From Candidatus Omnitrophica bacterium UBA6215 (GTDB lineage: Bacteria; Omnitrophota; Gorgyraeia; Pluralincolimonadales; Pluralincolimonadaceae), in the NCBI GenBank assembly GCA_002421665.1, contig DISH01000007.1, positions 17,278-81,277 of the forward strand: 64,000 bases of DNA, written 5' to 3'. Each line of letters starts with the position of its first letter. Positions within the stretch are counted from its first letter, which is position 1. Below, piece by piece: positions 1,024 through 42,756 of the stretch. The translations under genes and the position numbers were made by a program. A model generated the notes under the pieces. The model saw nothing but the letters and a program-made list of their open reading frames with translations, did no database searches and had not been told where the DNA came from.

Positions 1024-1218
1024 GGCTTTATTACTCCTTGCATTTCTATACGTTGCGGCTTATAATTTTACCATAAATATGAATAAGAAAACTGACTCTC
1101 AGCTGAATGATGCCGCAAGTGTTTGCTATTTAGCGGTCTCTTTGTTTCTGGGACTTCTGTATATTTACCTGCACAGGGGCCTACTTTCCTATTTTTTAAA
1201 TTTTTTTATACCTATAAA

Positions 1219-9465: not shown

Positions 9466-9471
9466 GGGGCA

Positions 9472-10497: not shown

Positions 10498-10527
10498 TAT
10501 ATATTTATTAAGAACCCCTCTCCGGTC

Positions 10528-11910: not shown

Positions 11911-11925
11911 ATCCTTTTCCCCCGT

Positions 11926-15940: not shown

Positions 15941-18862
15941 ATGCAGGAGCAGCCAAGACCGAGGGGTGTCCCCTTTTTACAGAAATTATTCTTCCTTTTC
16001 ATACTGCTCGCCGTATTCGGCTCCATAGGACTGTGGTATGTCAACGAATATATCATGCCTACAAAAGGCAGGGCGCTTGTCCTTGATTACCTCGCCGGGG
16101 CAACGGGCCGCGAGATAGTCCTCGGGGACGTCTATTACAACCCCCTGCGCGGGATAATACTCAAGGACCTGTCGATCTCCGATGAAAAGAAGTATAACCG
16201 CAAGTTCCTTGAGGTTAAAAAACTTTACCTGAACATTCTTTACCTCCCGCTGCTGCAGGAGAAGAAGTTCGTCGTCTCATCGGTAAGGATCGAATCCCCC
16301 AAGATATACCTTACCGTCAACGAGATGAACGAGTGGAACTTCTCCTCCCTGCTGTTCCTGAAACAGGCGGAAGGCCGGCCGGAGAACGTCCTGGTCAACA
16401 GCATCTCGGTATCCGGAGGTACATGCGTATTCGAGGACCTGGCTACCGAACCCGACTTCAAGCAGGAGATCAAGGACGCGGACCTGTCCGTTTCCCTCTC
16501 TTATCCGCTAAAGGTCAAATTCAGGATGAATTCGGAACTCGTCATGGCGCAAAAGAACTCCGTATCGGCCGACGGGGAATTCTACCCGGCAAGCGGCAAT
16601 ACAGCCGTAAACCTCAGGATAAAGAACGTGCCGCTCTCGGAATTCAAGCCGTACTATGACGGTATGCCCTTCAAGTCCCTTTCCGGCAACCTTACGGGGA
16701 ACATAAGTTGTGTTTACGCGCCGGGCAAAAGCCTGGCTGTGGCAACGGTCTCTTCCGTTTCCGGAGTAGAGCTGGAACGTGATGACTTCAAAACAAAAGG
16801 CATCGTCGACCTGACCGGAAAGATGTTAATAGACCTCAAAGACGCTTCAAAGCTTAAAATGCCGTGCGTCATAACGGCATCCGCCAAAATAGACAGGCTG
16901 GACCTCTCTTCTTCCGGCTCATCGCCCGTTTTCGCGGTCAAAGGCGATATAAACGCCAACGGAAAATTCATACTTGACCTTAAAGACAGGAAGGTGCCTG
17001 TTAAATTTACGGCGGACACGCTGCTTCGCGATACAAGGATAAACGGCATACCGACGTTCGGCGCCATAGACAGGATAAACGGAAAGATATATTTCGATGA
17101 AACGAAACTTTGGACCGACCTGCTAAAAGGCTTAGCCAAGGGCTTCGATTGTGTATTTTCCGGAAGCATAAAGGATTATTCCGATCCTTACCTCAACCTG
17201 ACCGCCAGGACGGAACTGGACCTGGCGAGAATGGGTGAAATCATACCGCCGGAACTCAAGGAAAAACTAAAAGACTACAAATTCAGCGGGATCAGCAAAG
17301 TCGCCCTTAACGTTAACGGGCCGCTAAAGGGACAGGACAAGACGCCTCTCTCTTATACCGTTACGTCCGAACTACTGGATTGCAGCGTTAAACCGGAATT
17401 CCTGGACAAGCCCGTCAGATCGATAAACGGCTGCCTTTTAATAAAAGAGGATTCGTTATCTCTAAAGAACATAACCTCATTCTATGATGACAAGAAATAC
17501 CTGCTTAGCGGCGAGATAAAAGATTTCAAATCCCCGGCATGCGACATCTCGCTTTCCTCAGACGAACTTACGTTGAAAGCTGTCTTCAAGTCCGGGGATG
17601 ACTCACTGGTATTCAGCAGGTTCGACGGCAGGTACAGGGACAGTATCTTCAACCTTTCCGGGTCTGTTTCGGGGGGCATAGAACCGTCCCTGGAAATAAA
17701 GGGCACCCTTAAAACCAATATAGCCGAGATGGCGGCATATATATCGAAAGGAACCAGGGAATTTTACGATAAAATAGACCCGCGCGCCTCGGTCTATGCA
17801 GCTTTTGCGTTCAAGGGCAAAAGCCGGGACGAGGCCACCTGGAAAATAGACCTTACAAAACTGGAGGTAAAATCGGGCACGGAGAACGTTGTCCTTTTCG
17901 GGTCCGTCGCCAACCTAAAGGACCCTTCCCTGGATATAAGGGGCAGTCTCGACACCAATATCGAAGAGTTGAGGAAATACCTGCCCAAAGAACAGGCCGG
18001 ACTGCTTGAACAGAACGGTATCAAAGGCGGCGTCTCTTTAAAATTCGTCTTTAAAGGCAGGCAGAACGATATGGATTCCTGGGACGTTAACCTTGTGGCA
18101 GATTCTCCCCTCCTCGATGCCAGGAAACTCAAGTTCGATTCGGTCCACTTGGAAGGAAAATTCGTCGGGAAATATCTGACCGTATCAAGGCTGACCGCAA
18201 ACCCTTATGACGGTTCGCTTGCGGTAAATGCAGTCTTTGATTTCAATAAAGATAAGCCGCAATATGTGGCCCATATAGGCGCGCGCGACATCGATATCGG
18301 CAGGTGGAAGAACGATACTGAAATGAAAGACAAAAAATTGAGCGGGCGTTTTTCCGCGAACGCCGACCTCAGCGGGACCTCGGGCGAGCCCGGGACACTA
18401 AAAGGCGGAGGAAGTTTCAGGATATCCGACGGAAGTTTCTGGGAACTGCCCGTCTTCTCGGGACTGGCCAATATACTCTATATACCGAAGGTAAACAAGA
18501 TAGTATTCGGCCAGGCGCAGGGCACCTTTACCGTTGCGGAAATGAAGGTCCGCACTGATGACACCAAGATGAGTTCCCCGCAGATGGACCTCATCGGAAA
18601 CGGTACGGTCGATTTCGACGGAAATCTGGATTTCCAGGTCACGGCCGTATTCGATAAAGCCCTTATCCAGATACCCTCGTCCCTTGGACCTTTCCGCGAC
18701 TTGCTGATAGACAAGGACGGACGCTATCTCGGGGATATCAATCTAAACGGGACGACAAAAGAACCTAAGTTCGACCCGAAACCTCCGCGGCTGGACAAGA
18801 TCTGGAACAACAGGCTGTTCGACAATATCAAGAAAGGTATTTTCGGAGACAGTTCAGAATAA
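15941..18862 (+). CDS. AsmA-family protein (outer-membrane biogenesis / intermembrane lipid-transport TamB-like)
   Basis: 973 aa with an N-terminal TM anchor followed by a long beta-rich periplasmic region. AsmA-like N-terminal region (LKDLSISDEK..., VSSVRIESPKIYL). Confidence 0.6.
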   Translation: MQEQPRPRGVPFLQKLFFLFILLAVFGSIGLWYVNEYIMPTKGRALVLDYLAGATGREIVLGDVYYNPLRGIILKDLSISDEKKYNRKFLEVKKLYLNILYLPLLQEKKFVVSSVRIESPKIYLTVNEMNEWNFSSLLFLKQAEGRPENVLVNSISVSGGTCVFEDLATEPDFKQEIKDADLSVSLSYPLKVKFRMNSELVMAQKNSVSADGEFYPASGNTAVNLRIKNVPLSEFKPYYDGMPFKSLSGNLTGNISCVYAPGKSLAVATVSSVSGVELERDDFKTKGIVDLTGKMLIDLKDASKLKMPCVITASAKIDRLDLSSSGSSPVFAVKGDINANGKFILDLKDRKVPVKFTADTLLRDTRINGIPTFGAIDRINGKIYFDETKLWTDLLKGLAKGFDCVFSGSIKDYSDPYLNLTARTELDLARMGEIIPPELKEKLKDYKFSGISKVALNVNGPLKGQDKTPLSYTVTSELLDCSVKPEFLDKPVRSINGCLLIKEDSLSLKNITSFYDDKKYLLSGEIKDFKSPACDISLSSDELTLKAVFKSGDDSLVFSRFDGRYRDSIFNLSGSVSGGIEPSLEIKGTLKTNIAEMAAYISKGTREFYDKIDPRASVYAAFAFKGKSRDEATWKIDLTKLEVKSGTENVVLFGSVANLKDPSLDIRGSLDTNIEELRKYLPKEQAGLLEQNGIKGGVSLKFVFKGRQNDMDSWDVNLVADSPLLDARKLKFDSVHLEGKFVGKYLTVSRLTANPYDGSLAVNAVFDFNKDKPQYVAHIGARDIDIGRWKNDTEMKDKKLSGRFSANADLSGTSGEPGTLKGGGSFRISDGSFWELPVFSGLANILYIPKVNKIVFGQAQGTFTVAEMKVRTDDTKMSSPQMDLIGNGTVDFDGNLDFQVTAVFDKALIQIPSSLGPFRDLLIDKDGRYLGDINLNGTTKEPKFDPKPPRLDKIWNNRLFDNIKKGIFGDSSE

Positions 18863-25188: not shown

Positions 25189-25539
25189 TGGTGGAGGCGC
25201 GGGGATTCGAACCCCGGTCCTTAAGTCACTCGCTAAGAGCTCCTACGCGCGTTTCCTGCAATTTATCGTCTCGCCGATACGGTCGCGCAAGCAGGCCCGC
25301 TACCGTAAAGGCCAGCCTTTGTTGTATCTTGTCCCTTCCCCCCAAAGGCGAGAAGAAAGTGACCAGCCTGCTGCGGCGTCACATCCGGCCTCGCAGGCAA
25401 GACCGGAGGACGTGCTGCAATTAAGCAGCTAGCGCGAGTTCATTCGCGTTTAACTTTGTTGTCAGGTTTTAACGAGGCCACCTGACACCCTCGGCGCGCA
25501 ACCCTTAACCCGCTTCTTAAGTCGAAACCTTTCGCCCCC
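25189..25539 (-). ncRNA. ssrA: tmRNA (SsrA), ~351 nt
   Basis: Minus-strand RNA begins GGGGGCGAAAGGUUUCGAC and ends GGGGUUCGAAUCCCCGCGCCUCCACCA (tRNA-Ala-like acceptor with G3-U70 and T-arm). Internal tag ORF ends ...GCG AAU GAA CUC GCG CUA GCU GCU UAA (..ANELALAA*). Directly downstream of smpB. Confidence 0.85.
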
Positions 25540-25992
25540 TTATTCTTTTCCGCGTATCTCGCGCCTTAACTCCCTGTCGGAATCGCGGCGTTTGATATCT
25601 TCGCGTTTGTCATAGAGCTTCTTGCCCTGGGCCAGGGCCACTTCTACCTTCGCCATGCCTCTCTTGAAATATATCTTAAGGGGCACGAGCGTCAGCCCTT
25701 TCTGCGTAAGCCGCCCGAGTATCTTCCTTATCTCGGACTTATGCATAAGCAGCTTGCGCTTCCTCTTAGGCTCGGGGGCAAATCTCCCGGCCTGAGGATA
25801 AGGCGTTATATGCATATTATAAATAAATATCTCGTCTTCGTCTATCCTGGCGAAACTGTCCTTGAGGTTGGCCTTTTTGTCCCTCAACGACTTGACCTCG
25901 GACCCTTGAAGCACTATACCGGCCTCAAAAGACTCGAGGATATGATAATTGTGCCTGGCCTCCCTGTTTGTCGCAACCGTCTCGTCCGCCAT
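25540..25992 (-). CDS. smpB: SsrA-binding protein
   Basis: SmpB signature (TVATNREARHNYHILESFEAGIVLQGSEVKSLR...) and C-terminal basic tail. Start placed at internal Met (MADETV). Confidence 0.9.
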   Translation of the reverse strand: MADETVATNREARHNYHILESFEAGIVLQGSEVKSLRDKKANLKDSFARIDEDEIFIYNMHITPYPQAGRFAPEPKRKRKLLMHKSEIRKILGRLTQKGLTLVPLKIYFKRGMAKVEVALAQGKKLYDKREDIKRRDSDRELRREIRGKE

Positions 25993-26098
25993 TTTAGTCG
26001 GTAATAATATAACATATACGCTCAAAATAAGGCAACCTTTTTATGGTTGCAAATTCGGCCGATAATCGGTATAATTTACTAAGTTTTTAAAGAAAACC

Positions 26099-28126
26099 AT
26101 GGAAGATAACCTTAAGACATTCCTTTCGCTGGTCAAAGTCAACCGGTTCGAGGAAAGATATTCCAAAGATATTACCCCGGATACCTATTTCGGTTTTCCC
26201 CTGGAAAGTATAATACAGGCCGAAAAACGGCTTACTTCCCGGGAAGAACCCTCCGTAGGATATTTCTCTATGGAATACGGCTTGGGAACCAGCATATACA
26301 ACAGCTATAAGTCTTCCTCCCCGCTCTCCGAACCCAATACCCTTCCCAGGCAGAACATATTTTCCAATATGAGGATAAGGGACTACTATTTCCAATTCAG
26401 CATCGGAGAACGCATGATCGACCTGCCGATATACAGCGGAGGCCTCGGCGTCCTCGCGGGAGACAGCCTGAAATCCGCGGCGGACCTTAACGTCTCCCTG
26501 GCCGCGGTCGGTATTCTTTGGAGAAAGGGGTACTTCAAGCAGAATTTCTGGTTTAAGGACGGGCAGGTTCCCGAAGAACTTAATTGGGACCCCTACTCAT
26601 ATCCCGGCCTGATCCCCCTGGACACCGTCATAACCTTGCCTCTTAAAAACGGCGATCTGCTCCTTAGGCTGTGGAAATATTACGTATACAGCTATGACAA
26701 AAAACACACCGTTCCTCTTATACTTTTGGATTCGGACGTGGAAGGCAACCCGCCGGAATCGAGAGGTTTGACGGACCAGCTCTACAGGAGCGATAACTCA
26801 TACTTCAAGATAATGCAGAGGGTCATATTGGGTATCGGCGGCATCAAGGCCTTCGGGGCCCTCGGATATAATATACACAAGTATCACCTGAACGAGGGAC
26901 ATGCTGCAATGGCGCTTGTCGAGATGGCCGACTCGCTTGACAAAAGCAACCTTGCTTCGCTGGAGAACAATTTTGTCTATACCTGCCATACGCCTGTGGC
27001 TGCAGGACACGACCGTTTCCCGATAAAAGAACTCGAGAAGATACTGCCTGACGAAAATATAGACTTCATAAAGAAGAACGGCGCCGAAGACAGCACCGCT
27101 AACCTGACCGTCCTGCTCCTGAATTGCTGCAGGAGCGTAAACGCGGTCGCCAAGAAACACGGCGAGATCACGCGGCTGCAATTTCCCCAATTTGCGCCAA
27201 AGATACAATCTATAACCAACGGTATCCACATTCCCACCTGGATATCCGATGACATAGCGCAGCTTCTCGAAAAATACAGCAACAGGACCGGAACCTGCTC
27301 ATCAGGGCATATGGACCTTCTCGACCTCGAGAATCTAAGGGCAGATGAAAACTTCAGGGCGGACCTCTGGAAAGCCCATCAGGCCAATAAACGCAAGTTA
27401 TCGGAAATATTCGCGAACTGGGACATAAAAGATAACTGCTTTACATTGTGCTGGGCAAGAAGGATAGCGGCTTATAAGAGGCCAAGCCTGCTTTTTCAGG
27501 ACCCGAGACGCCTGGTTGAGATAGCCGAAAAATACGGCCCTATACAGATAATCATAGCCGGTAAGGCCCATCCGAACGACAGCCTTGTGGGAACATATAT
27601 CAACAACATAATGAACACGATAGATTCCCTGGGTTCGAAAGGTTCCGTCCTGAGGATAATAATGCTGGAAAACTATGACATCTTCTTCGGGAAGCTCCTT
27701 ACCAGCTCCGTAGACGTATGGTTGAACAATCCCCTCCCCCCGTTCGAGGCATCCGGGACAAGCGGGATGAAAGCAATACTCAACGGGGTCCTGCAATTGT
27801 CGACCCTCGACGGCTGGGTGGTAGAGGCAGCCGACGCATCCGAGAACCCCGACGCCAACATAGGTGAGATATTCGGCTACAGGCATAATAGCGGCGACCC
27901 TATCGGTAACGAGCTTGACCTGCGCCTCGATTCGGACTCGGCTCAGTTGTATGAAGCCCTTGAAAAGATGGTCAAGCTTTATTACGAGACGGATAAGAAC
28001 GGAAAAACAGATATCGGTTCAAAATGGATCGATATTATGTTAAACTGTATCAAACAAAGCCATTATTTCAACACGTGCAGGATGGTCGGTGAATACCGGG
28101 ACAGGATGTGGTTCGTAAAAGATTAG
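26099..28126 (+). CDS. glgP: Alpha-glucan phosphorylase (GT35; PLP-dependent, archaeal/short-type glycogen/maltodextrin phosphorylase)
   Basis: 675 aa with PLP-Lys motif EASGTSGMK and a phosphorylase core (GGLGVLAGD). Confidence 0.85.
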   Translation: MEDNLKTFLSLVKVNRFEERYSKDITPDTYFGFPLESIIQAEKRLTSREEPSVGYFSMEYGLGTSIYNSYKSSSPLSEPNTLPRQNIFSNMRIRDYYFQFSIGERMIDLPIYSGGLGVLAGDSLKSAADLNVSLAAVGILWRKGYFKQNFWFKDGQVPEELNWDPYSYPGLIPLDTVITLPLKNGDLLLRLWKYYVYSYDKKHTVPLILLDSDVEGNPPESRGLTDQLYRSDNSYFKIMQRVILGIGGIKAFGALGYNIHKYHLNEGHAAMALVEMADSLDKSNLASLENNFVYTCHTPVAAGHDRFPIKELEKILPDENIDFIKKNGAEDSTANLTVLLLNCCRSVNAVAKKHGEITRLQFPQFAPKIQSITNGIHIPTWISDDIAQLLEKYSNRTGTCSSGHMDLLDLENLRADENFRADLWKAHQANKRKLSEIFANWDIKDNCFTLCWARRIAAYKRPSLLFQDPRRLVEIAEKYGPIQIIIAGKAHPNDSLVGTYINNIMNTIDSLGSKGSVLRIIMLENYDIFFGKLLTSSVDVWLNNPLPPFEASGTSGMKAILNGVLQLSTLDGWVVEAADASENPDANIGEIFGYRHNSGDPIGNELDLRLDSDSAQLYEALEKMVKLYYETDKNGKTDIGSKWIDIMLNCIKQSHYFNTCRMVGEYRDRMWFVKD

Positions 28127-28235
28127 GCGGGCCGAAGTGGCGGAACTGGCATACGCGCTACGTTCAGGGCGTAGTGACCGTAAGGTCTTGAGAGTTCAAA
28201 TCTCTCCTTCGGCACCATAAAAAGGAGGCCGGAAG

Positions 28236-28706
28236 ATGGCTATACCCGCAAAGCTCAAGAAGTACCTGGACTCCAATAAGGTCAAATATAAAACCCTCAA
28301 ACACAAACTGGCATACACTGCCCAAGAGATAGCCGCAGCGCAGGAAGTCCCGGGAAAACAGGTCATAAAATCAGTCCTGGTAAAAACCGATAAAGGTTTT
28401 GCGCTCGCAGTCCTGCCGGCTATACACCTGATAGACCTGAAAAAACTCAAGTCCGCGCTCAAATGCAAATCCCTGAAGATCGCCACCGAAAAAGAGATGG
28501 AAAAGACCGTTCCCGATTATAAGCCGGGAGCTATGCCTCCATTCGGCGCCCTCTTCGGGCTCGATACCGTAGCGGACAAGATCCTCAAAGAAGACATAGA
28601 AATAGTATTTAACGGCGGCACTCATACCGACACGGTCAAGATGAAATATTCCGATTTCGAAAAACTCGCCGGGCCAAAAATCGCCGACTTCGGAAAACAC
28701 ATCTAG
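28236..28706 (+). CDS. YbaK/ProX-type aminoacyl-tRNA deacylase domain protein
   Basis: 156 aa YbaK/EbsC-like fold (...KSVLVKTDKGFALAVLP...GAMPPFG...). The next gene starts immediately at the stop. Confidence 0.65.
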   Translation: MAIPAKLKKYLDSNKVKYKTLKHKLAYTAQEIAAAQEVPGKQVIKSVLVKTDKGFALAVLPAIHLIDLKKLKSALKCKSLKIATEKEMEKTVPDYKPGAMPPFGALFGLDTVADKILKEDIEIVFNGGTHTDTVKMKYSDFEKLAGPKIADFGKHI

Positions 28707-31700
28707 ATGGAAAGCGGGAAACGCGAGCTTTCCAGGATCTCCAAAAGACTTACGGACTTCCTCCAGGAACTCCCCCGCCCCGGTTATCTTTGGCCGTATT
28801 CCGTAACTTATCTTCTTGATAAATTCGGCAAAATAAAAAGAGGTAAGTTCAGATATGCCACGCCGGGACAGCACAATTTCGTGATGTCCGAAATAATCGT
28901 CAGAAAAGCCCTCGCCAAGATCATCTACCGGAATACCGCATGGCTCGAGAGAAGCTACAGGAGGGAAAAGAGGTCTATAAACAAGAGGCTCTGCACCCTT
29001 TACGGGACGGTCGAAGACTGTCAAGCCGACGATATCTCTGTAACACCTGGTGCCTTGCGCGAGATATTCCTGCTTGAAAAACGCAAAACCAGCCTGGACA
29101 AGATGCTTGCCGACAAACGGCTTGAAATACAAGGCAAGGTCCTGCATGATTTCATGTCCATATTCGAGGATGATATCAGGAAGGCCAGCAGCATAGAGGA
29201 CTTCACGGACTTTTCGCAGATATTTGCGAACCTAAGGGACGGGGTAAGATCAAACGATAACTATAAAATAAATGAGGCCGTAAACGCGCTTTCGGAAAAG
29301 CTGGTAGTCCCTTCCGAACTTCTTTCCAGAAGGATAATAGGCCACCGCTTGGGCGACCATGAACTCAGCCTTCTGGGAAAGTTCACCAGGGAACTTGATA
29401 ATTACCCGGAATACAAGGATGCCGTCGCCAACCTGAGGGATTTCGGGAGGTATCGCAAGGCAGTCCTGTTAATAGACCAGCTCCGCAAAAGCAAGGATAT
29501 CCTTATCCCCCCTCCTTTCGTAAAAGGCACAAAAGCCCGGATATATGAGGGTCTGACCCGATCGATGCGCCTTTTCTTCGCGACGATGATAGCGATAATA
29601 CCTACCCTCACCGTGTACGGCATCGGGGGAATAAGCCATCTGCCGTTATGTACTTTCATGTGGATGGCAGCTTGTTTCGGGGTTACGTACTATATATCAT
29701 GGCAGCCCTCCCATAAAATGGCCCTGTTCCTGGTCAGCCTTATGGTAAACACACCCGGGCATAAAATGCTCCCGGAGCTCGGAAAATACATAGACTCCAA
29801 CTATACGGAAGACAAGCCGCTTAAAATATCCTATGTAACGGCTAAAAAAAGCGATACGGAATCGGATGCCGAGATAGCCATATTTTATTTCAGGAAAACC
29901 ATCGAAGCCCTGAGGCCGACCCTCGAGACTTTCGGGAAAAAGATATTGCTCGTCATCACTTTCTGGTCGGATACGAAAAATGACAGCATCATAGAATATG
30001 AGGTAAAAAGGCTCGAAGAATTTTCCAGGGAACATCCCTATGATAACCTTGAATTCCTTTACCTGAACAGGTCTAAAAGCGAATGGTTCGACAACACAAA
30101 GCTCGGCATGATAAGAATAGGCGGTTTTGCCGGTAAGGTTGGCGGTATAGGCAACCTGATGCACCTGATGAACACCGGCCAGACCAAACCTTATCTCTTT
30201 ACCGACGAAGGCTTCGAATTCACCCAGAACAGGAATAAACCCCTTATTTGCAGGGTGTGGTCGACGAACCTCGTGAAGGCACTGGGCGTCGACACCGGTA
30301 AGGAGCAGATAACCTCCGAACGGGCCGCCGAACGTATCTTGCGCGGCGACGATATAGATATAGACCCGTCCAGGATATCCGAGTTCTGCGTTATCATGGA
30401 CGATAAGAACGAGCTGTATGCCGGCGAGCTTGAAAAAGCGCTTGCAATACTCCTGCACCCGGAAAACGAACACATAGTGATCGCCCAGCCCCATATAGCC
30501 ATCACCCCTCCTTACCTCAACGGCAAGGCCAAGGAAAGCATCTACTGGAAGATAATGAAGAATGAGCGCGATATAGAGAACGAGATAAACATGAAAGTCA
30601 TCTCCGGGATATACGGCAAGGAGCGCGCATTCTTCGGCAAAGGTTTCGCCAGGACAAAGATATATTACGACAGGGTATTTAAACCTGAGACCCTCTCTCC
30701 TGCCAAGGTTTTGTCCCATGACTGGCAGGAATCGATATTCAGCAGGAACTGCGAGGGCCTTTTGGGTGCCAAGAGGTTTATCGTGAAGAAGGTCTCGGAA
30801 AAACCAGGTTCCGCAGTCCTGAGGATAGACCTTGCCAATACCACAAGGTTCGTACGCCTTGAGAGGGACGCGCAAAAAGACGTACTCGTCTATCATCTCG
30901 ATATCGCTTCCGGGGAATACCGGTTCGTCAGGAAATTCCGCCGCCTGGAAAACCTGGATATGGACGAGGTGGTCAAATACACGGCGAATTTCTACAATAA
31001 TGCGGTCATTGTAGGCGAACGCGACCAGCTGCATTTCGTCACTTACATTATCCGCGACGTCAGGTGGCTTATCGGCGATTTCCAGGCCATAAGGACCCTT
31101 ATATCCTACCGCAGGATACTCACATATTACCACCAGTGGCACCTTAGCTGGGCCATCGGAAGGCTCCTCTCCGATCCCATGCTTTTCTGTTTCATAATAT
31201 TAATGTGCCTCCTTTGGATATTCCCGTTCATCCTTGTAGTGCCGACTAACTCAAATGCGTATTGGATAACTCTTGTCCTATCCTTCTTCGGGATCATATT
31301 TGTCCACAGGTTCATCGACCCCGTAAGGTATATCTTCCGCAGGGCGCGCGCCGAAGGCAGACCTATACGCCCCCTCTCCTTCTCTCTTGAGCTCGTAGAC
31401 CAGTTCTTCGACAGCATCCTCCAGGCGATGGAAACTACCGTGTCTTCTCTGCAGTTAACGGTCATAAAACCGCTGCTTTCATATTCGATATACAAATCAG
31501 AAAAAATCAATAAGGTCCCGGAATGGAAAACTTCCAGTACCCTTTCACTTATGGAGCTCGAGGGCAGGATAACCAGGAACGAGTTCAAGGACATCAGGAT
31601 AGAAGAAGCCCAGAAGATGGGCCTTATAATATCCGCCATAGCGGCAATATACATAATCACGGGCATAGCGCCGATAACGGTTTTCGGCATATTCGGTATA

Positions 31701-34700
31701 CTGCCTTGGGCAGGTTCGCTTATCTTCGGCCGTTACGCTATCTCCGCTATAGGTAAAGTGCGCGACCTTAATACCCGCAAGGCCACTATACAGGAAAGGA
31801 CAAAAAGGCTGTATGTCATAATATCCGCTATCCTTCTCCTGCTGGTAACATTGTCCGCGCTCAGGGACATCCCTAGCTACAATAAACACGACCTTATTAA
31901 ATTCGTCCTCCCGGAATCAAGGGAAAGGTTCAGCTATTCCGCCGAAGAAGAGAGGCTCCTTGGAAAGATGCGCAAGGACCTCGAAAAGATCGAGTTCTAT
32001 ATACCCGACAGGATAGTCGACAGCAAGCTCTCTCCCGTGCTTAAATCCCGCGAGGGAAAGACAAAGCTGATGGCCGAGGTCCTTCCCGTAGAGGATAAAC
32101 TCTCCAGAGCAATACCTCTCTTAAGGCCCGTCACGCGGGATGCTGTAGCTCCCATAATAACCGAGGCGGTCTCCCCCCTCGAAGAACCGGAGCTCTCCGA
32201 CCTGACGGCTTTCAGGGATTTTTTCTCCGCTTCCCACAAGATGGGAAAAAGAAGGCTGTTCACTTCTACTGCCCTCGCCGGGACAAAAATAGCGCTCTCC
32301 ATGCAGTTCTCCGCCGCGGCTATAGCGATAACTGCCGTAGACAGGGTCGAGGGATTGGGCATGATAGCGCGTTACGGCAAGGAATACCCGTGGTTCAATG
32401 TACTCGACCCCCTTACGGGACAGTTCTGGTTCGAGACAAGCAGGGAAACCGGGCTTTCAATGAAAGATATAGCGGAGGTATTCAGGTGGGAGGACACAAA
32501 GAAATACTGGAATGCCGATTTTGCCAAGAAGAAGGGCATCTGGAAACGCTATGAATACCTCCAGAGAGGAATATTATCCCTGTACTATTCCGGATTAGAG
32601 GTCAACGAGCAGAACCTTAGGAAATTCTTTGCTGAATACGACAAGATGCCGCAATTCAGGAAAAAATACCCGGCAGTCCCTCTCAAACCTTTCCGGCTTG
32701 TACCTGAACCGGCAAAGACCCTTCTGCAGCTCATTGGAACGGTAACTTTCTATGTCCCTGTAATCGAGATCATCCCCGCAACCGAGATACCTTTCGGGAC
32801 TATATTAGGCATAGTGGAAACGGTGGTAGCCGGTAAACAAGGTAAGCTGGAATACCTTATAGTAACAGGCATGAAGAACGGCTTGTCCACCGAGGAAGTA
32901 ATGGAACACCTCGGCTTCGACTATGTAAACTATGCATGGCGCAAGACGCGTATCCCGTCAGAAATATATGATGTCAACCGGCAAAGGTTCCTCGCCGATT
33001 ATAAGAAAAAGGGCGTCGATAAGGTTGACTACGAAAGAAGCGACATAAAACTTATATGCATACTCTCCGATTACAGGATGGCCCTCGATACCCGGGAAAC
33101 CCTGGGGTATGAAGAGAAGCCGTCGAATCCCCAGATCAAGGAGACGGCGGACGCGCTGCGCGGATATCTTGTAGACATATGGAACGACGTACAAAAACGT
33201 TATCCGGAGCTCGAAGACGGCATAAAGGCAAAAGGTATAGGCGAATACCTTGCTATTTCATATTACGTGATGTCACGCAGGTATGGATGGGGTCTCGAAC
33301 AATACCTTGATTTCCTTGGCCCGCAGCTAAAGAAGGCCGTAGAGTTAAAGGATAAAGGCATCACTCTCGATGATAGAACGATATATGAGATCATGTTCAA
33401 TAACGAGATACTCCAGAAGGGCCTCTATGACGATCCCAGACTCCAACCGGAAAAGAACGCTGTCTTGATATCCCGCCTGGACAGGCAGATCGAAAAACAA
33501 TCGGATGCCGGCAAGCAGATGACAGGATATATCTGGCTGTCTTCCCTTATGCTGGATGCCGAAAAGAACGGCATAAAAGTTGATCCCGGCGAATTCGCCT
33601 TGAAGTTCATGGAGATATACGAGACGGGGCTGTCGCTGGGCTATACAGAAATACCATGGTGGGAAAAATGCGGATACCTTACCCTGATATACTACAAGGC
33701 CGGGTTCGGGACCACTATGGAACTTTTCGACTACTTCAAGAACGAATTCAGCATGTCCAACACGTGGCTCAAGGATAAACTTCCTCTCCCGGAAGGGTTC
33801 GTACACGGTGTAATGGAAACTACTTATAGGGACATGGGGTACGGCAGTGACCAGGCTGCAATATTGGAAACGCAGACTCCTGAGAAACTTAAGTTTGACA
33901 TGGCATATGAGTTCCTGGCAGCGCTCGTGATAGAGACAGAAACTAACAAACTCAAAATTTCACCCGAAGACCTGGCCTCGGAGTTCATGGCCTTTTACAG
34001 GACCGGATCCGCTTCGGGGTACAACAGGATACCATGGTGGAACATAAGCGGTTACCTGATGCTTGAATACGAAAAGAACAGGGCATTTCACGGATGGGAG
34101 AACATAGACGATTATTTTGCGTACTACACTCCGTTGTTCGCATCCATAAACAAGTGGTTTACGCAGGACCTAAGCCTTCCCGAAGGATTTGAATATGAGA
34201 ACGCTTTCCGCCTCGAGATATTGAAACGTAAGCTGGATCATGATCCCAGGCATGCAAAGGATGGCAGCCGGTCATTACAGGTCATTAAAGACACGGCGGA
34301 GAACCAGACCCCCGTCATCAAACGGTTCAACGCCTATATGACACTAGCCAGGCTTAAAGAGGACTATGCCCTGGATTTCGGGCGGCAACTGGACGATACG
34401 GAAGTCCTGCATTTGGCGGGAATACTCACGACCTTCTGGACCGAACTGCCGGTCAAATATCCGAACCTCCCCCTCTTCGTTCCCGGTATCATTGAAAAGA
34501 TAGCCATTAATTCTCTCGCATTCAATGACTACCGCGATGTTGAAAAAGCTGCTTTCCTCCAGCAGATAAACAGTCTCTGGGATTTAAAAGTGCCCGGGCC
34601 GATAGAATCGGGGATAAGAAAAGAGGTTGAAGAGAAGACAGGCATAGACCTGGATGATGAACGGATCCTTCATTACACCACCTTACAAACGGCCATCGGC

Positions 34701-36233
34701 ATACTCGACAGCCTGGGCGCAGCGGTCATCGAACCGGACATAGTAAGGACCTTACAGCTACGCCAGGCGATCAGGTCCGTTTCTAAACAATATCCCGACC
34801 TGGAGCTGCTCAAACAAGGCAATGCCGAATGGATGGCCGTGTACGCCCTGAAAAAGAAACTGACATTTTATGAGCTCCAGGAGAAATATCTTAAGCCGAT
34901 ACAGCAGATATATAAAGACGCGGCAAACGCCTACTTCCCGAGAGAGATAGATATCATGACCGGGAAACTTAAGGATATAAACGAAAGGGACATCGGGGTA
35001 ATAACTGATATATACGGGCTGAAGGACAAGGGTTTCGCGGCGCAGCCTAAGATAAGCGCGAACGACGTTATCGTAAATGTCATATGGTATCACCTGCAGA
35101 GGGCTTACGATATAGGCATACCCGAGAAAGACATCCCGGTATTCTTCAGGGTATTAAGAGCGGTAAAAGAGAATGACCTCGCGCACTTGGTCTCGATAGA
35201 GTCGGCGGATGAGCTTTCCAAATGGCAGGAAAAGATGGATTCCGCTTCATTTCGCCTCATGACTCTTTATAATGACCCGCGGTCAAGGAAAAAATTCAAG
35301 TCCCCGCCGGACTTCCTTTACAAGTTCCTGTCGAACAGCACCGCGGTCAGGGAGAACCCGGCTATCAGCTCCAAGTTAAGTTCGATCAGGTCCGCGGACG
35401 AAAAGGTCGCCGACTCGCTTGAATTCCTCTGGCCGCTTCTTATGACACTGGAAAATATCTCCCCTTCGGTCATGGAGAATATAGTATCCAATATGAGCTA
35501 TGTGACATCCTCATACAAGGAGCTACTGGGCATGCAGCCTGAAAAGGACTCTGCCGTTGAGTTCAATGAGGCGGTCAATGTCTACCTGACCGGGGAATAC
35601 GGAAAGTTCCTCATAAGGCAAAAAACGAACTACCAAAGGGCGCAGTCTTCGTGGTGGACAAACTACATAGTAAAACTCAGTTACAGGAGGCTGTTTAACG
35701 AGAACCTTGATGAGGCGGAAAGGACAAACCGCAAAATATTGAAGAACATGCAGGTATGGTTCGACAGGGAAAAACTTAAGAACCCGCATAGCTATGTCCT
35801 CAAAAAGATAGTGGAAAACCTTATCGAACACGGTTCGATAAAAAGGATCGGGCTCATGAGGCCTGTCTATAGCGGCAAGAACGAATACAAAAACCGTATA
35901 CTCAGGCTCAACAGATATATTAACCGGCTCGATTCGGAGATAGCCCTGTTAAAATCCGAAAACCGCTATTCTGCCGACCTTGAAAAAATATCGGCCAAAG
36001 CAAAAGAAGATCTCGCGGAAATCGAAAAATCTCCTTCTGAACTCACAAAAAAAGCCATAGAAGCCGAGAGACTCCTGCTTTTCTACAGACAGGTACATAA
36101 CAGGGATTCTTTGTTCCTTACGGCTATGATAGCTGCCGGAATGATAGGTACTATACTGCTATCCCGCCTTATTCTTTTAGTCAAAATAATGTTATCCGGC
36201 ATTGTGCGCCGCCTGCACCCGCTAGAATCCTAG
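28707..36233 (+). CDS. Giant (2508 aa) polytopic membrane protein. Core is OpgH/MdoH- or cyclic-glucan-synthase-like processive GT2 glycosyltransferase flanked by TM bundles. Followed by ~1450-aa alpha-helical extension with tandem ~125-aa repeats and a C-terminal TM anchor.
   Basis: Uninterrupted 7.5-kb ORF. TM clusters at aa ~295-345, ~785-850, ~930-1010 and at the C-terminus. Between the first two clusters: DxD (VIMDDKNE), LSHDWQES (compare OpgH LSHDFVEA / BcsA TED) and RDVRW (compare OpgH RDRRW / QxxRW). Repeats FMEIYETGLSLGYTEIPWW... / FMAFYRTGSASGYNRIPWW... at ~33606-34360. Confidence 0.5.
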   Translation: MESGKRELSRISKRLTDFLQELPRPGYLWPYSVTYLLDKFGKIKRGKFRYATPGQHNFVMSEIIVRKALAKIIYRNTAWLERSYRREKRSINKRLCTLYGTVEDCQADDISVTPGALREIFLLEKRKTSLDKMLADKRLEIQGKVLHDFMSIFEDDIRKASSIEDFTDFSQIFANLRDGVRSNDNYKINEAVNALSEKLVVPSELLSRRIIGHRLGDHELSLLGKFTRELDNYPEYKDAVANLRDFGRYRKAVLLIDQLRKSKDILIPPPFVKGTKARIYEGLTRSMRLFFATMIAIIPTLTVYGIGGISHLPLCTFMWMAACFGVTYYISWQPSHKMALFLVSLMVNTPGHKMLPELGKYIDSNYTEDKPLKISYVTAKKSDTESDAEIAIFYFRKTIEALRPTLETFGKKILLVITFWSDTKNDSIIEYEVKRLEEFSREHPYDNLEFLYLNRSKSEWFDNTKLGMIRIGGFAGKVGGIGNLMHLMNTGQTKPYLFTDEGFEFTQNRNKPLICRVWSTNLVKALGVDTGKEQITSERAAERILRGDDIDIDPSRISEFCVIMDDKNELYAGELEKALAILLHPENEHIVIAQPHIAITPPYLNGKAKESIYWKIMKNERDIENEINMKVISGIYGKERAFFGKGFARTKIYYDRVFKPETLSPAKVLSHDWQESIFSRNCEGLLGAKRFIVKKVSEKPGSAVLRIDLANTTRFVRLERDAQKDVLVYHLDIASGEYRFVRKFRRLENLDMDEVVKYTANFYNNAVIVGERDQLHFVTYIIRDVRWLIGDFQAIRTLISYRRILTYYHQWHLSWAIGRLLSDPMLFCFIILMCLLWIFPFILVVPTNSNAYWITLVLSFFGIIFVHRFIDPVRYIFRRARAEGRPIRPLSFSLELVDQFFDSILQAMETTVSSLQLTVIKPLLSYSIYKSEKINKVPEWKTSSTLSLMELEGRITRNEFKDIRIEEAQKMGLIISAIAAIYIITGIAPITVFGIFGILPWAGSLIFGRYAISAIGKVRDLNTRKATIQERTKRLYVIISAILLLLVTLSALRDIPSYNKHDLIKFVLPESRERFSYSAEEERLLGKMRKDLEKIEFYIPDRIVDSKLSPVLKSREGKTKLMAEVLPVEDKLSRAIPLLRPVTRDAVAPIITEAVSPLEEPELSDLTAFRDFFSASHKMGKRRLFTSTALAGTKIALSMQFSAAAIAITAVDRVEGLGMIARYGKEYPWFNVLDPLTGQFWFETSRETGLSMKDIAEVFRWEDTKKYWNADFAKKKGIWKRYEYLQRGILSLYYSGLEVNEQNLRKFFAEYDKMPQFRKKYPAVPLKPFRLVPEPAKTLLQLIGTVTFYVPVIEIIPATEIPFGTILGIVETVVAGKQGKLEYLIVTGMKNGLSTEEVMEHLGFDYVNYAWRKTRIPSEIYDVNRQRFLADYKKKGVDKVDYERSDIKLICILSDYRMALDTRETLGYEEKPSNPQIKETADALRGYLVDIWNDVQKRYPELEDGIKAKGIGEYLAISYYVMSRRYGWGLEQYLDFLGPQLKKAVELKDKGITLDDRTIYEIMFNNEILQKGLYDDPRLQPEKNAVLISRLDRQIEKQSDAGKQMTGYIWLSSLMLDAEKNGIKVDPGEFALKFMEIYETGLSLGYTEIPWWEKCGYLTLIYYKAGFGTTMELFDYFKNEFSMSNTWLKDKLPLPEGFVHGVMETTYRDMGYGSDQAAILETQTPEKLKFDMAYEFLAALVIETETNKLKISPEDLASEFMAFYRTGSASGYNRIPWWNISGYLMLEYEKNRAFHGWENIDDYFAYYTPLFASINKWFTQDLSLPEGFEYENAFRLEILKRKLDHDPRHAKDGSRSLQVIKDTAENQTPVIKRFNAYMTLARLKEDYALDFGRQLDDTEVLHLAGILTTFWTELPVKYPNLPLFVPGIIEKIAINSLAFNDYRDVEKAAFLQQINSLWDLKVPGPIESGIRKEVEEKTGIDLDDERILHYTTLQTAIGILDSLGAAVIEPDIVRTLQLRQAIRSVSKQYPDLELLKQGNAEWMAVYALKKKLTFYELQEKYLKPIQQIYKDAANAYFPREIDIMTGKLKDINERDIGVITDIYGLKDKGFAAQPKISANDVIVNVIWYHLQRAYDIGIPEKDIPVFFRVLRAVKENDLAHLVSIESADELSKWQEKMDSASFRLMTLYNDPRSRKKFKSPPDFLYKFLSNSTAVRENPAISSKLSSIRSADEKVADSLEFLWPLLMTLENISPSVMENIVSNMSYVTSSYKELLGMQPEKDSAVEFNEAVNVYLTGEYGKFLIRQKTNYQRAQSSWWTNYIVKLSYRRLFNENLDEAERTNRKILKNMQVWFDREKLKNPHSYVLKKIVENLIEHGSIKRIGLMRPVYSGKNEYKNRILRLNRYINRLDSEIALLKSENRYSADLEKISAKAKEDLAEIEKSPSELTKKAIEAERLLLFYRQVHNRDSLFLTAMIAAGMIGTILLSRLILLVKIMLSGIVRRLHPLES
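33606..34360 (+). repeat. Two diverged tandem protein-level repeats (~125 aa each) inside the giant ORF (IPWW..GYL..LPEGF module)
   Basis: Aligned by eye: FMEIYETGLSLGYTEIPWWEKCGYLTLIYYKAG...LPLPEGF versus FMAFYRTGSASGYNRIPWWNISGYLMLEYEKNR...LSLPEGF. Preceded by a weaker third copy. Confidence 0.6.
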
Positions 36234-38466: not shown

Positions 38467-39495
38467 TTAGAACCTGTAATACATCCCGAGGGAGGTTATC
38501 GAACCCGAGTATTTTTGGGCGGGATAATTGGACTTGTTCTGGCGGTAGGAATAATTCAAACCCAGGGTAGCGTTCTTCGTAATATCATAATAAAGGGATG
38601 CGCTGGTCACCCAGCCCCTGTCGTGTTCACGGGTCGTGGGATCATCCGGTATGGTCCTGCCCGAATAGTACCTGAACTGCCTGTAATACGACGCATAGGC
38701 GCTAAGCTTCTTGGTTATAAGGTATATCGCGGAAGCGCCCAGCTTGGTGGAATCATAATCATAATAATCCAGGTAACTGTCATTGGAGTCGTTCTTGAAG
38801 TATTCCCCGAACACCTTGAACATGGATTTCTTCATATACATGCCCAGGCTGTAATCCAGGGTGTTCCTCCTGTCTACCCTGTCATAATCAGAGAACCCGC
38901 CCCAACCGTTGAAGGCTTTTCTGTCGGAGAAATTCTTGTAATAATACTGATATTCGAAGGCGTGGAAGAAATTGTTGGGCAGCTTTTGCTTGATGACGAT
39001 GCCGGCCTTATCGCCGACATATTCGCCGTTATCGTTCTTCTGGTACTCCATCATCTCTATGTCATTATACGCGTTCACGGTTATGCCGCCGAAGAGCCTT
39101 CCCTCGAATCCTATTTTCAGGTCCGTATCTATAAGGCTGGCTGAAGTCGCCTCCCAGTAAGTTATGTCGTGGGTGGAAGCTTCAAAAAAGAAATCCCACC
39201 TGCCGTTCATGGGATATGATATGCTTCCGTCGATTATGAATTCCGAGAATGTGTCGGCTTTTCTCTGGGGATCCAGGAAAACGTTGTCGTCATACCCTTG
39301 CGCGGCGGATACCAGCAGCTTGGTCTTGTACCTCTTGTGCTCGCGGAGGGTCTCAACTTTTTTATATGACCTCTCTTCGGCCCTGCCGAGGAACTTTTCG
39401 GTCGTCTCTTCTTCCTTCATATCCGCTGCGCCGGCAAAACCGCCGAAGAATGCCATAGCGACAAACACAGCCGCAACAAAGTTGAGTTTTTTCAT
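38467..39495 (-). CDS. Putative outer-membrane beta-barrel protein (uncharacterised)
   Basis: Signal peptide (MKKLNFVAAVFVAMAFFGGFAGA), alternating amphipathic beta-strand pattern, C-terminal ...YYRF. Confidence 0.45.
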   Translation of the reverse strand: MKKLNFVAAVFVAMAFFGGFAGAADMKEEETTEKFLGRAEERSYKKVETLREHKRYKTKLLVSAAQGYDDNVFLDPQRKADTFSEFIIDGSISYPMNGRWDFFFEASTHDITYWEATSASLIDTDLKIGFEGRLFGGITVNAYNDIEMMEYQKNDNGEYVGDKAGIVIKQKLPNNFFHAFEYQYYYKNFSDRKAFNGWGGFSDYDRVDRRNTLDYSLGMYMKKSMFKVFGEYFKNDSNDSYLDYYDYDSTKLGASAIYLITKKLSAYASYYRQFRYYSGRTIPDDPTTREHDRGWVTSASLYYDITKNATLGLNYSYRQNKSNYPAQKYSGSITSLGMYYRF

Positions 39496-39516
39496 AAGAT
39501 GCGATCCCATCATACG

Positions 39517-40401: not shown

Positions 40402-41133
40402 TTATCGGGTGCCGAAATTAGTCTTACTGCCTTCCCTGCGGGCGTCCGACACGTCCTCTTTCTGCCCGGAGGGCCTGCTCCCGGAGGGACCGTCGTCCTT
40501 GTTCTCCTTGCTCTTTATCAGGAGTTTCCACGGGTGGCGTTTTACATCGTCGCTGAACTCCTTGAGGTTCTCGGAAGAATCCTTCAGGTTCACCATCACG
40601 GCCCTTATGTCGTCCTTATTGTCTACAAGCACGCCGTCCGCGTCATTCATCAGCTTCTGGAGGTCCTGCATCGCCGAGTCGAGCCTGGCGGCAAGGGTCT
40701 TACCCATCTCTATAAGCTCTTCCATCTCAAAAGGATCTATACCCGTTATAGTAGAGCCTTTTGCCACGAACGGCGACCCTTTGGACCCGCCGGTTATCTC
40801 TATATACTTCTCGCCTATAAGACCCGTGGTGCTTATCCTTATCTTGGAGTCCTGTCTTACCTTTGCATCACCGCTCAATATGAGGCTCACGAGGACCTTG
40901 GTCTCGTCATCTTTATAGGTATGGCTGACCTTTTCCACTTCTCCGATTTCCACGCCCGCCAGCTTCACCGGGGCTTTATCCTCGAGCCCGCTGACATAAT
41001 CGAATATTACGTTCAGCTTATAGTCGTCCTTCCCTTTTTTTATCCCTCCCATCGAAGTAAATATGTAAAGAAAAACCAACGCCGCGGCGACGACCACTAC
41101 CCCGGTCTTTGTTTCATTATTGATATTGATCAT
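40402..41133 (-). CDS. mlaD: MlaD (Mce-domain) phospholipid ABC transporter substrate-binding component
   Basis: 243 aa with N-terminal TM and an Mce domain (...VKLAGVEIGEVEKV...). Confidence 0.8.
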   Translation of the reverse strand: MININNETKTGVVVVAAALVFLYIFTSMGGIKKGKDDYKLNVIFDYVSGLEDKAPVKLAGVEIGEVEKVSHTYKDDETKVLVSLILSGDAKVRQDSKIRISTTGLIGEKYIEITGGSKGSPFVAKGSTITGIDPFEMEELIEMGKTLAARLDSAMQDLQKLMNDADGVLVDNKDDIRAVMVNLKDSSENLKEFSDDVKRHPWKLLIKSKENKDDGPSGSRPSGQKEDVSDARREGSKTNFGTR

Positions 41134-41145
41134 ACGTGACTCCTT

Positions 41146-41949
41146 TTATTTTGTAAGCTCTTCCAGATAACCTTCGTCCGGCGCAAAGAACTGCATCGGC
41201 CCCTCTATGGTACCGTTTATAAACTGTTGTATATATTCATTCTTTGAGTTCTTTATCTCTTCCTTGGTACCTATCTGCAGCACCTTGCCCTTATAGAGCA
41301 TGACTATCCTGTCGGCTATCCTGAAGACGGAATTCATATCATGGGTCACGACGACGGACGTAATAGATAACGCGGAACCGAGGTCAAGGATCAATTTGTC
41401 CACGACGGCTGTGACCACGGGATCGAGTCCCGCGGAAGGCTCATCGTAAAATATTATCTCCGGATCAAGGGCTATCGCACGGGCAAGGCCGACGCGTTTC
41501 TTCATGCCGCCCGAGAGCTGCGACGGCATGAGGTGCCCGAAACCGCGCAGGCCGACCTGGTTCAGTTTCATCTTTACCATTATCTTGATGATATGGTCGT
41601 CGAGCTTGGTATGCTCTTTCATCGGCAGGGCAATGTTCTCCTCCACCGTCAATGAATCGAACAGCGCGGCAGACTGGAAAAGCATGCCGAACCTTTTCCT
41701 GACGCAGTCCATCTTGTCCTCGTTCGCGCGGGTGATATCCTGCCCGAAGAGGGATACCCTTCCCTTGTCCGGCTTCAACTGCCCGATGATATGGCGCAGG
41801 AGCGTTGACTTGCCGCATCCGGAGCCTCCGACAATGACAAGCGTCTCGCTCTTATAGACCTCGAGATTGATACCGTCGAGGACCTTACGGCCGTCGAAAT
41901 TCTTCTCGAGATTCTCTACTTTTATTACGGTTTCTCTTTTTTCGGTCAT
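41146..41949 (-). CDS. mlaF: MlaF ABC transporter ATP-binding protein
   Basis: Walker A GGSGCGKST, signature LSGGMKKRV, Walker B IIFYDEP. Confidence 0.9.
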   Translation of the reverse strand: MTEKRETVIKVENLEKNFDGRKVLDGINLEVYKSETLVIVGGSGCGKSTLLRHIIGQLKPDKGRVSLFGQDITRANEDKMDCVRKRFGMLFQSAALFDSLTVEENIALPMKEHTKLDDHIIKIMVKMKLNQVGLRGFGHLMPSQLSGGMKKRVGLARAIALDPEIIFYDEPSAGLDPVVTAVVDKLILDLGSALSITSVVVTHDMNSVFRIADRIVMLYKGKVLQIGTKEEIKNSKNEYIQQFINGTIEGPMQFFAPDEGYLEELTK

Positions 41950-41961
41950 GGCATTATACCG

Positions 41962-42756
41962 CTATACGTTCGAGAAATAGAATATACCGGTCAAAACGGC
42001 GTCGGCCAGTATTATAAGGATGAAACTGATGACGACGCTCATGGTCGTCGAGCGTCCGACGCCTTCGGCGCCGCCCTTTGTATTGAGGCCCTCATAACAT
42101 CCTATAAGGGCTATTATCATCCCGAATACAACACTCTTGAGCAGACCGGTCATGACGTCTTTCATGACCAGGAATTCAAAATTTGTCTTTATGTACAGGC
42201 CGGGGTTTATCTTGAGATTGTATACGCCCACTATATAACCGCCGATCATGCCTATGAGGTCTCCCATGATCGTAAGCGCGGGAAGCATGACTATCAGGGC
42301 GAGAAAACGGGGGACTACCAGGAACCTTATGGGGTTAAGCGCCATCGTCTCAAGCGCCTCTATCTGCTCGGTGACCTTCATTGTACCCAACTCCGCGGCT
42401 ATTGCGGAACCGACACGCCCGGCTACCACAAGCGCTATAAGGATAGGCCCGATCTCGCGGCACATCGAGACGCTTATGAGAGCGGCCACGAACTTGACCG
42501 CCCCGAGTTGGTTGAGCTGGTAGGCGCCCTGCATGGCAAGGACCATGCCGATAAAAAGCGCGACGAAAAATACGATAAGCAAAGATTGCACGCCCGCGAA
42601 GACCATCTGGGCGAATATATAACGCCTTCCGATGAATTTACCCCTGAATGGGGCAAAAAAAAGCCAATACAACGTGTTGAAAAACAGCTCAAATACGTCC
42701 CATATCGCCGCGCCCGCGTTAAGGGTCATCCTACCTATGGACTGAAATATACTCAT
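41962..42756 (-). CDS. mlaE: MlaE ABC transporter permease
   Basis: 264 aa with 5-6 TM helices, MlaE/YrbE family pattern. Confidence 0.85.
   Translation of the reverse strand: MSIFQSIGRMTLNAGAAIWDVFELFFNTLYWLFFAPFRGKFIGRRYIFAQMVFAGVQSLLIVFFVALFIGMVLAMQGAYQLNQLGAVKFVAALISVSMCREIGPILIALVVAGRVGSAIAAELGTMKVTEQIEALETMALNPIRFLVVPRFLALIVMLPALTIMGDLIGMIGGYIVGVYNLKINPGLYIKTNFEFLVMKDVMTGLLKSVVFGMIIALIGCYEGLNTKGGAEGVGRSTTMSVVISFILIILADAVLTGIFYFSNV

Follow-up and report, generated by a model that had tools for sequence, protein, structure and literature searches.

A giant open reading frame (ORF) in contig DISH01000007.1 of Candidatus Omnitrophica bacterium UBA6215 (assembly GCA_002421665.1) encodes a membrane protein that carries a tandem array of six-helix repeat units, each about 126 residues long and without detectable relatives outside a small protein family. 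Omnitrophota are an uncultured phylum of ultra-small, possibly host-dependent bacteria. We analyzed a stretch of 64,000 nucleotides of this contig, referred to as the window, with the giant ORF near its center. The parts of the protein, in order, are a putatively cytoplasmic helical N-terminus, two transmembrane (TM) helices, a region resembling the family 2 glycosyltransferase (GT2) OpgH, five TM helices, an all-alpha extension of ~1,400 residues that holds the array, and a C-terminal TM anchor. We tentatively propose, giving the idea a little less than an even chance, that the array is an accessory all-alpha periplasmic scaffold beside an OpgH-type GT2 synthase, where it would hold or guide the glycan or a partner.

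Repeat units, their conservation, and their predicted fold

An initial annotation, made from the DNA sequence, had placed two clear copies of an IPWW-containing repeat of ~125 residues at positions 33606-34360, with a weaker copy upstream, and both observations held up. In frame, the interval corresponds to amino acids (aa) 1634-1884, in which both of the strings quoted for the copies were found; the two IPWW motifs, at aa 1649 and 1775, are 126 residues apart, and PEGF is found at aa 1695 and 1825. Self-BLAST aligned aa 1608-1698 with aa 1734-1828 (39% identity over 95 columns; E = 1e-20), and a profile-profile comparison of the two units across six orthologues returned a probability of 99.7% (E = 1.6e-25; 91 columns). 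The same pair reached P = 1e-20 in a sliding hhalign scan of aa 1054-2470. The unit starts ~30 residues upstream of the start first assigned to it, taking in two further helices (a and b) from about aa 1604. We refer to the two clear copies as U1 and U2 and to the upstream copy as U0 (Table 1).

U0 is real but partial. BLAST aligned aa 1511-1578 with aa 1780-1848 (27.5% identity; E = 1e-4), hhalign aligned aa 1511-1614 with aa 1780-1883 (P = 1.3e-6; probability of 90.6%; 103 columns), and a hidden Markov model (HMM) of the unit matched this copy in every long orthologue. Because the hhalign match extends beyond U2, the residues that follow aa 1859 seem to be the start of a fourth, truncated unit (U3). 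The scan also weakly paired aa 1483-1517 with aa 1902-1934 (P = 0.006), and helices were predicted by AlphaFold2 (AF2) at aa 1869-1891 and 1897-1904 within this putative unit. The sliding scan found no significant internal repeats other than U0 to U3 between aa 1054 and 2470, nor did it support a recurrent "G-[LI]-x-x-x-[DE]-hydrophobic" helix-turn motif that had been suspected by eye across the extension. Overall, the internal repeat is significant and its unit does not match a well-known domain of unrelated function, the two points on which the claim of a repeat had been said beforehand to depend.

The full-length orthologues of the giant protein share 94, 74, 74, 74, and 56% identity with it. 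In an alignment of the U1 and U2 units of the window protein and of P0002 to P0005, five sequences in all, 24 columns are invariant over both paralogues, including P-W-W, G-Y, L-P-x-G-F, and several aromatic positions. The motif is better written as [IKM]-P-W-W than as a strict IPWW. The duplication that gave rise to U1 and U2 is older than the split of orthologues that are 56% identical. The ratio of nonsynonymous to synonymous substitution rates (dN/dS), calculated against the 94%-identical orthologue, is 0.067 for the whole gene, 0.165 for U0, 0.075 for U1, and 0.128 for U2, compared to 0.049 for the putative catalytic region. The units are therefore under purifying selection, somewhat relaxed relative to the core, and this weaker constraint is what is expected of an accessory structural part. 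The lowest value in the gene, 0.027, belongs to aa 1056-1485, the part of the extension around a hydrophobic hairpin.

Based on an alignment of six sequences only, AF2 modeled aa 1486-1905 as an all-alpha structure of 21 helices, with a mean predicted local distance difference test score (pLDDT) of 87.2 and no residue below 50. Each unit comprises six helices, which we call a to f. Helix c, which is very hydrophobic, begins with PWW, and the loop that precedes helix e is formed by LPxGF. The helix order c-d-e-f-a is seen three times in the model and therefore supports U0 and the partial U3 independently of the alignments. Because the predicted template modeling score (pTM) is high, at 0.81 over the 420 residues modeled, the model suggests that the tandem all-alpha repeats are packed into one continuous domain rather than arranged as beads on a string.

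Searches for relatives of the unit were consistently negative outside its own family. A HMMER search with the unit profile against 1.84 billion representative proteins matched a single representative, P0002, which belongs to this family and was hit in three stretches. No significant family was found when the whole protein was scanned against Pfam and NCBIfam, or when three segments of the extension and each unit were scanned against Pfam. Profile searches of PDB sequences with the unit and whole-family alignments gave nothing beyond a keratin coiled coil (E = 0.44). Foldseek searches with the repeat model were not significant against 350,542 PDB chains (best E = 0.48; TM-score of at most 0.17), where the nearest neighbors were G protein-coupled receptors and designed helical repeat proteins, or against BFVD (best E = 0.86). 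By sequence comparison and predicted fold, the unit is an orphan.

The conserved aromatic residues raise the question of whether the array is a dedicated carbohydrate-binding module (CBM), with the aromatics of PWW, GY, and LPxGF forming a glycan platform that is repeated two or three times. Phenylalanine, tryptophan, and tyrosine make up 16 to 18% of the units versus 11% of the protein overall, both copies have W, Y, and F positions that do not vary, and the array is predicted to lie outside the cytoplasm next to a putative glycan synthase. However, known CBMs are overwhelmingly beta-sandwich proteins, whereas the unit is all-alpha in the AF2 model. HMM scans of the whole protein, the extension segments, and the units recovered no Pfam CBM match and no homology to a CAZy CBM family, and U0 has lost PWW altogether. 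The aromatics also sit in strongly hydrophobic helices in which they may be buried, and their enrichment is equally compatible with glycan binding and with a hydrophobic core. We regard a dedicated CBM as unlikely.

The OpgH-like core and the predicted topology

OpgH (also known as MdoH) is a family 2 glucosyltransferase for osmoregulated periplasmic glucans, and it is the closest counterpart that we could identify for the N-terminal core of the giant protein. Core motifs WSDT (aa 420-423), GKVGGIGN (476-483), DDK (565-567), QP (594-595), FGKG (643-646), LSHDWQES (669-676), and RDVRWLIGD (783-791) are colinear with the GT2 motif set of D, DxD, QxxP, SHD (the equivalent of TED), and Q/RxxRW. 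In an hhalign comparison of the family profile with the catalytic region of Escherichia coli OpgH (P = 0.0065 to 0.008), all seven motifs aligned in order, as the pairs WSDT/LSDS, GKVGGIGN/RKSGNIDD, MDDKN/LDADS, QP/QSSP, FGKG/WGHN, LSHDWQES/LSHDFVEA, and RDVRWLIGD/RDRRWCHGN. On the OpgH side, they correspond to LSDS, KSGN, DAD, QxxP, WGHN, LSHDxxEA, and RDRRWxxGN and are likewise followed by TM helices. The seven motifs are invariant in seven family sequences. When the OpgH segment was shuffled, none of 300 shuffles reached the real score of 27.0 (mean of 16.0, standard deviation of 2.7, maximum of 26.0).

HMM scores for the core are far below curated cutoffs. On the giant protein, Pfam Glyco_trans_2_3 scored 12 bits versus a cutoff of 27 (E = 0.19), and the NCBIfam MdoH model NF003963 scored 10.9 bits versus a cutoff of 884 (E = 0.34). 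Scanned singly, five of five family members matched NF003963 below threshold (best E = 0.0024), and four different MdoH models topped the NCBIfam list. The core further differs from OpgH by two large insertions in the catalytic region, OpgH has no counterpart of the ~1,400-residue all-alpha extension with its C-terminal TM helix, and the repeat unit is dissimilar to OpgH. On the strength of the colinear motifs, we consider the core probably to be a very divergent OpgH-type GT2. A beta-rich insertion at aa ~690-745 (positions 30774-30941), with five predicted strands and a pLDDT of 72 to 77, lies between the SHD and RDxRW motifs, where E. coli OpgH has none; a regulatory or ligand-binding insert is possible.

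If the core were not a polysaccharide synthase, the array could instead belong to a large membrane-anchored surface protein for interaction with other cells or a host, a role that has been proposed for other very large Omnitrophota proteins. The family passes no curated GT2 threshold and is confined to this lineage, and Omnitrophota are known to have large extracellular proteins with helical repeats (bioRxiv 10.1101/2023.11.21.568195). Against this explanation, seven colinear OpgH motifs are invariant across the family, the alignment score was reached by none of the 300 shuffles, and MdoH models are the top NCBIfam matches in all five members scanned; we find it improbable.

We predicted the membrane topology from a Kyte-Doolittle scan, counts of lysine and arginine residues in loops, and the positive-inside rule. 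Two TM helices (aa 288-310 and about 313-333) precede the catalytic region, and five follow it. The loops between the latter alternate between no lysine or arginine (aa 846-850 and 988-990) and five to eight such residues (aa 874-890, 950-967, and 1011-1030). If the catalytic region is taken as cytoplasmic, this alternation puts residue ~1054 on the outside, and the last TM helix becomes an out-to-in anchor with an RR-containing tail. The arm of ~1,400 residues, with the repeats, is thus predicted from sequence to lie in the periplasm, with TM helices 1031-1053 and 2470-2495 fixing its two ends in the membrane.

The window also bears on the kind of envelope involved. It encodes a 973-residue AsmA/YhdP/DUF748-like protein (positions 15941-18862) and an MlaD/MlaF/MlaE operon with a FecR-domain neighbor (positions 40402-42756). 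These markers point to a diderm envelope, which fits Omnitrophota and does not fit Dehalococcoidia. A monoderm Dehalococcoidales origin, suggested by the NCBI label of the family member P0003, is contradicted by the diderm markers and by the Omnitrophota labels of most metagenome-assembled genomes (MAGs) with orthologues.

The array could also be a cytoplasmic regulatory or protein-docking domain, in an arm that stays in the cytoplasm as all domains of the cyclic beta-1,2-glucan synthase Cgs do. The topology is a prediction, and either the segment at aa 900-925 or the hydrophobic hairpin at aa 1338-1370 could switch the TM parity; the extension is also rich in lysine and arginine and almost devoid of cysteines. 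The hairpin could be a re-entrant or TM hairpin or part of a buried core. An additional TM helix at aa 900-925 is disfavored because loops with eight to nine lysine and arginine residues would then face outside, and the C-terminal TM helix with its RR tail fits an out-to-in anchor. We consider a cytoplasmic array unlikely.

Family distribution and the short homologue

Only six protein clusters among 5.8 billion belong to the family. Seven loci were identified in 185,579 species-representative genomes, and a scan of JGI metagenome contigs for the unit recovered just three, all orthologous. The family is rare, with about ten loci, mostly in Omnitrophota MAGs. Five genome loci are labeled Candidatus Omnitrophota and two "uncultured Planctomycetia," and one NCBI protein, P0003, carries the label "Dehalococcoidales." Complete long forms are 2,508 to 2,522 residues long (2,515 for both P0003 and P0005), and the unit HMM shows that each of them carries exactly two strong copies and a single weak one, always in the same places. 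The locus L010 lies on a truncated contig yet shows the same three matches, and L012 stops before the array.

This constancy bears on the role that the initial annotation had put forward. It described the repeats as forming, within the extension, a module without a known function, which they genuinely do, and suggested, by analogy with the C-terminal length-control domain of Cgs, a product-length ruler or a carbohydrate-binding or scaffold element. As a ruler, the repeats would measure or trim the growing chain. There is a general resemblance. Cgs (PDB 8RFE) is also a giant single polypeptide, of ~2,800 residues compared to 2,508 here, with large accessory domains downstream of a membrane GT2, and an array of fixed-size modules next to a putative OpgH-like GT2 core could in principle serve as a physical ruler. 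Besides an N-terminal domain, Cgs has GT2, CGSTg, and GH94 domains that work one after another, and chain length is controlled enzymatically by the GH94 phosphorylase domain (PMC11842490). The accessory domains of Cgs are thus enzymes, a transglycosylase and a GH94 phosphorylase, whereas Pfam, NCBIfam, and PDB profile searches found no GH94 homology in the extension or units, the repeat model does not show the (alpha/alpha)6-barrel fold of GH94, and 8rfe_A is absent from its Foldseek matches. In sequence and fold, the unit resembles neither GH94 nor any other PDB chain, and the topology prediction puts it and the Cgs domain on different sides of the membrane. Variation in copy number, as expected of a ruler, was not seen among long orthologues with 56 to 96% identity, and the short homologue described below lacks the array entirely. 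The analogy to Cgs is not borne out, and a ruler appears very improbable.

The short homologue, P0006 (L001, positions 8001-12836), is a protein of 1,611 residues with 38% identity to the giant protein, encoded on contigs of ~30% GC content. It aligns to aa 1-1112 and 2022-2495 and so keeps the core, the last ~480 residues, and the C-terminal TM anchor, but it lacks the ~909 residues between them, including all repeats. Since the array is missing from P0006, it is an accessory elaboration outside the conserved machinery, and it is dispensable in this short form. Next to P0006 are encoded two large TPR proteins (a GDSL lipase domain is present in one of them), along with a CHASE2-GGDEF protein and a Wzz/GNVR-type kinase. 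This neighborhood suggests an exopolysaccharide-type locus, in agreement with an exopolysaccharide role.

A possible scaffold role and other genes in the window

The array stems from an ancient tandem duplication and comprises the two well-conserved copies, a degenerate unit upstream, and a probable truncated one downstream, which are predicted to fold as one domain. It sits in a lineage-specific insertion of ~900 residues, itself within the arm of ~1,400 residues for which a periplasmic location in a diderm cell is predicted, and the adjoining membrane core is most likely the divergent OpgH-type GT2 described above. We infer that the array, as a rigid body, would enlarge the periplasmic arm at the exit of the synthase and there retain or steer the growing glycan or a partner protein.

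In function, though without homology, such an array may act much as BcsB does, or as the helical-repeat scaffolds that synthase-dependent exopolysaccharide systems have in the periplasm. BcsB and fused BcsA-BcsB proteins (AcsAB) of cellulose synthase resemble the predicted architecture of the giant protein in that a GT2 membrane synthase is joined to a large periplasmic part with a single C-terminal TM anchor; in BcsB, this part reportedly guides the polymer. BcsB, however, consists of beta-rich carbohydrate-binding and flavodoxin-like domains. The arm here is all-alpha in the AF2 model, and no homology was detected between them. The TPR, Sel1, and HEAT scaffolds of BcsC, PgaA, AlgK, and PelB are likewise tandem all-alpha periplasmic repeats adjoining a glycan synthase, a location that is predicted for the array. 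However, their repeats of two helices have a period of 34 to 45 residues, compared to 126 residues and six helices in the array, and no TPR, HEAT, or Sel1 HMM in Pfam matched the giant protein, the extension, or the units.

Several observations weigh against a periplasmic scaffold beside a synthase. The topology derives solely from hydropathy and the positive-inside rule, and the unit has no detectable relative of known function. The conserved aromatics, with PWW at the start of a very hydrophobic helix c, may simply form the hydrophobic core of the domain. The gene neighborhoods of the long forms consist of unrelated housekeeping genes and are not conserved; genomic context therefore lends no support. 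The insertion could be imagined as a cis version of the TPR proteins encoded beside P0006, but hhalign comparisons with the two (P = 0.34 and 0.81) showed no homology. With regard to the core, no curated GT2 threshold in Pfam or NCBIfam was passed, and the AF2 model of aa 1-1112 is poor (pLDDT of 50.8), though its beta-alpha-beta pattern at aa 372-600 is compatible with a GT-A fold. A Foldseek search of PDB with this poor model returned nothing significant; Cgs (8rfe_A) ranked fourth (E = 0.22). For the initial description of the repeats as lying after a processive synthase, the colinear OpgH motifs and the sub-threshold MdoH matches thus argue weakly in favor, and the unmet thresholds and the poor model argue against it.

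If the core is truly an OpgH-like synthase, the family would exemplify a new way, in Omnitrophota, of fusing the parts that synthesize and export polysaccharide, and the repeat would constitute a novel helical domain for polymer handling or partner docking on the periplasmic side. The protein looks like a novel variant in which a synthase is fused to a periplasmic arm. The unit itself, being well folded in the model (pLDDT of 87) and without relatives, is a candidate new fold family that merits a Pfam entry and an experimental structure. A more far-reaching idea, which we think of as a long shot, is that the unit founds a new domain family and that the cis-fused periplasmic array is the glycan-handling part (for guiding, binding, or length setting) of an unrecognized class of OpgH-like synthases restricted to Omnitrophota, with a single polypeptide taking on the tasks that BcsB, OpgG/D, or TPR partners perform in trans elsewhere. 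For the present, practical use is limited, as the family is rare and the organism is uncultured.

Table 1. Features of the giant ORF, with protein residues and positions in the window
Feature	Residues (aa)	Window positions	Strand	Basis
Giant ORF, 2,508 aa	1-2508	28707..36233	+	ORF list and translation
Putative, very divergent GT2 (OpgH/MdoH-like) catalytic region	365-800	29799..31106	+	Sub-threshold HMM matches, hhalign, shuffle test, motifs
Post-catalytic membrane region, five hydrophobic helices (820-845, 851-873, 968-988, 990-1010, 1031-1053)	811-1055	31137..31871	+	Kyte-Doolittle scan, loop lysine/arginine counts
Accessory insertion, ~909 aa, containing all repeat units	1113-2021	32043..34769	+	Gap map of P0006 in family alignment
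Hydrophobic hairpin with Pro and Glu, mid-extension	1338-1370	32718..32816	+	Hydropathy peaks of 1.65-1.71
Unit U0, degenerate copy upstream of U1; its helices c to f align with those of U2; without PWW	1486-1603	33162..33515	+	BLAST, hhalign, HMM, AF2 helix pattern
Unit U1, six helices (a to f); PWW at 1650-1652, LPLPEGF at 1692-1698	1604-1729	33516..33893	+	BLAST, hhalign, alignment, AF2, HMM
Unit U2, six helices; PWW at 1776-1778, LSLPEGF at 1822-1828	1730-1858	33894..34280	+	BLAST, hhalign, alignment, AF2, HMM
Unit U3, probable truncated fourth unit (tentative); helices a and b only	1859 to about 1934	34281..34508	+	hhalign overrun, AF2
C-terminal TM anchor, followed by short RR-containing tail	2470-2495	36114..36191	+	Hydropathy peak of 2.2; kept in P0006

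Elsewhere in the window, no Pfam matches were found for two ORFs, at positions 1123-3105 (660 aa, plus strand) and 38467-39513 (347 aa, minus strand). A tmRNA gene (tag peptide ANELALAA) adjoins smpB on the minus strand at positions 25189-26025, which is an ordinary arrangement. A divergent glycogen-phosphorylase-like gene (positions 26099-28126) lies upstream of a tRNA-Leu(CAG) gene (positions 28131-28217), which is followed by a YbaK/aminoacyl-tRNA-editing ORF (positions 28236-28706) upstream of the giant gene. No nucleotide separates the stop codon of the YbaK ORF from the start codon (ATG) of the giant gene at position 28707, which suggests that the two are cotranscribed.

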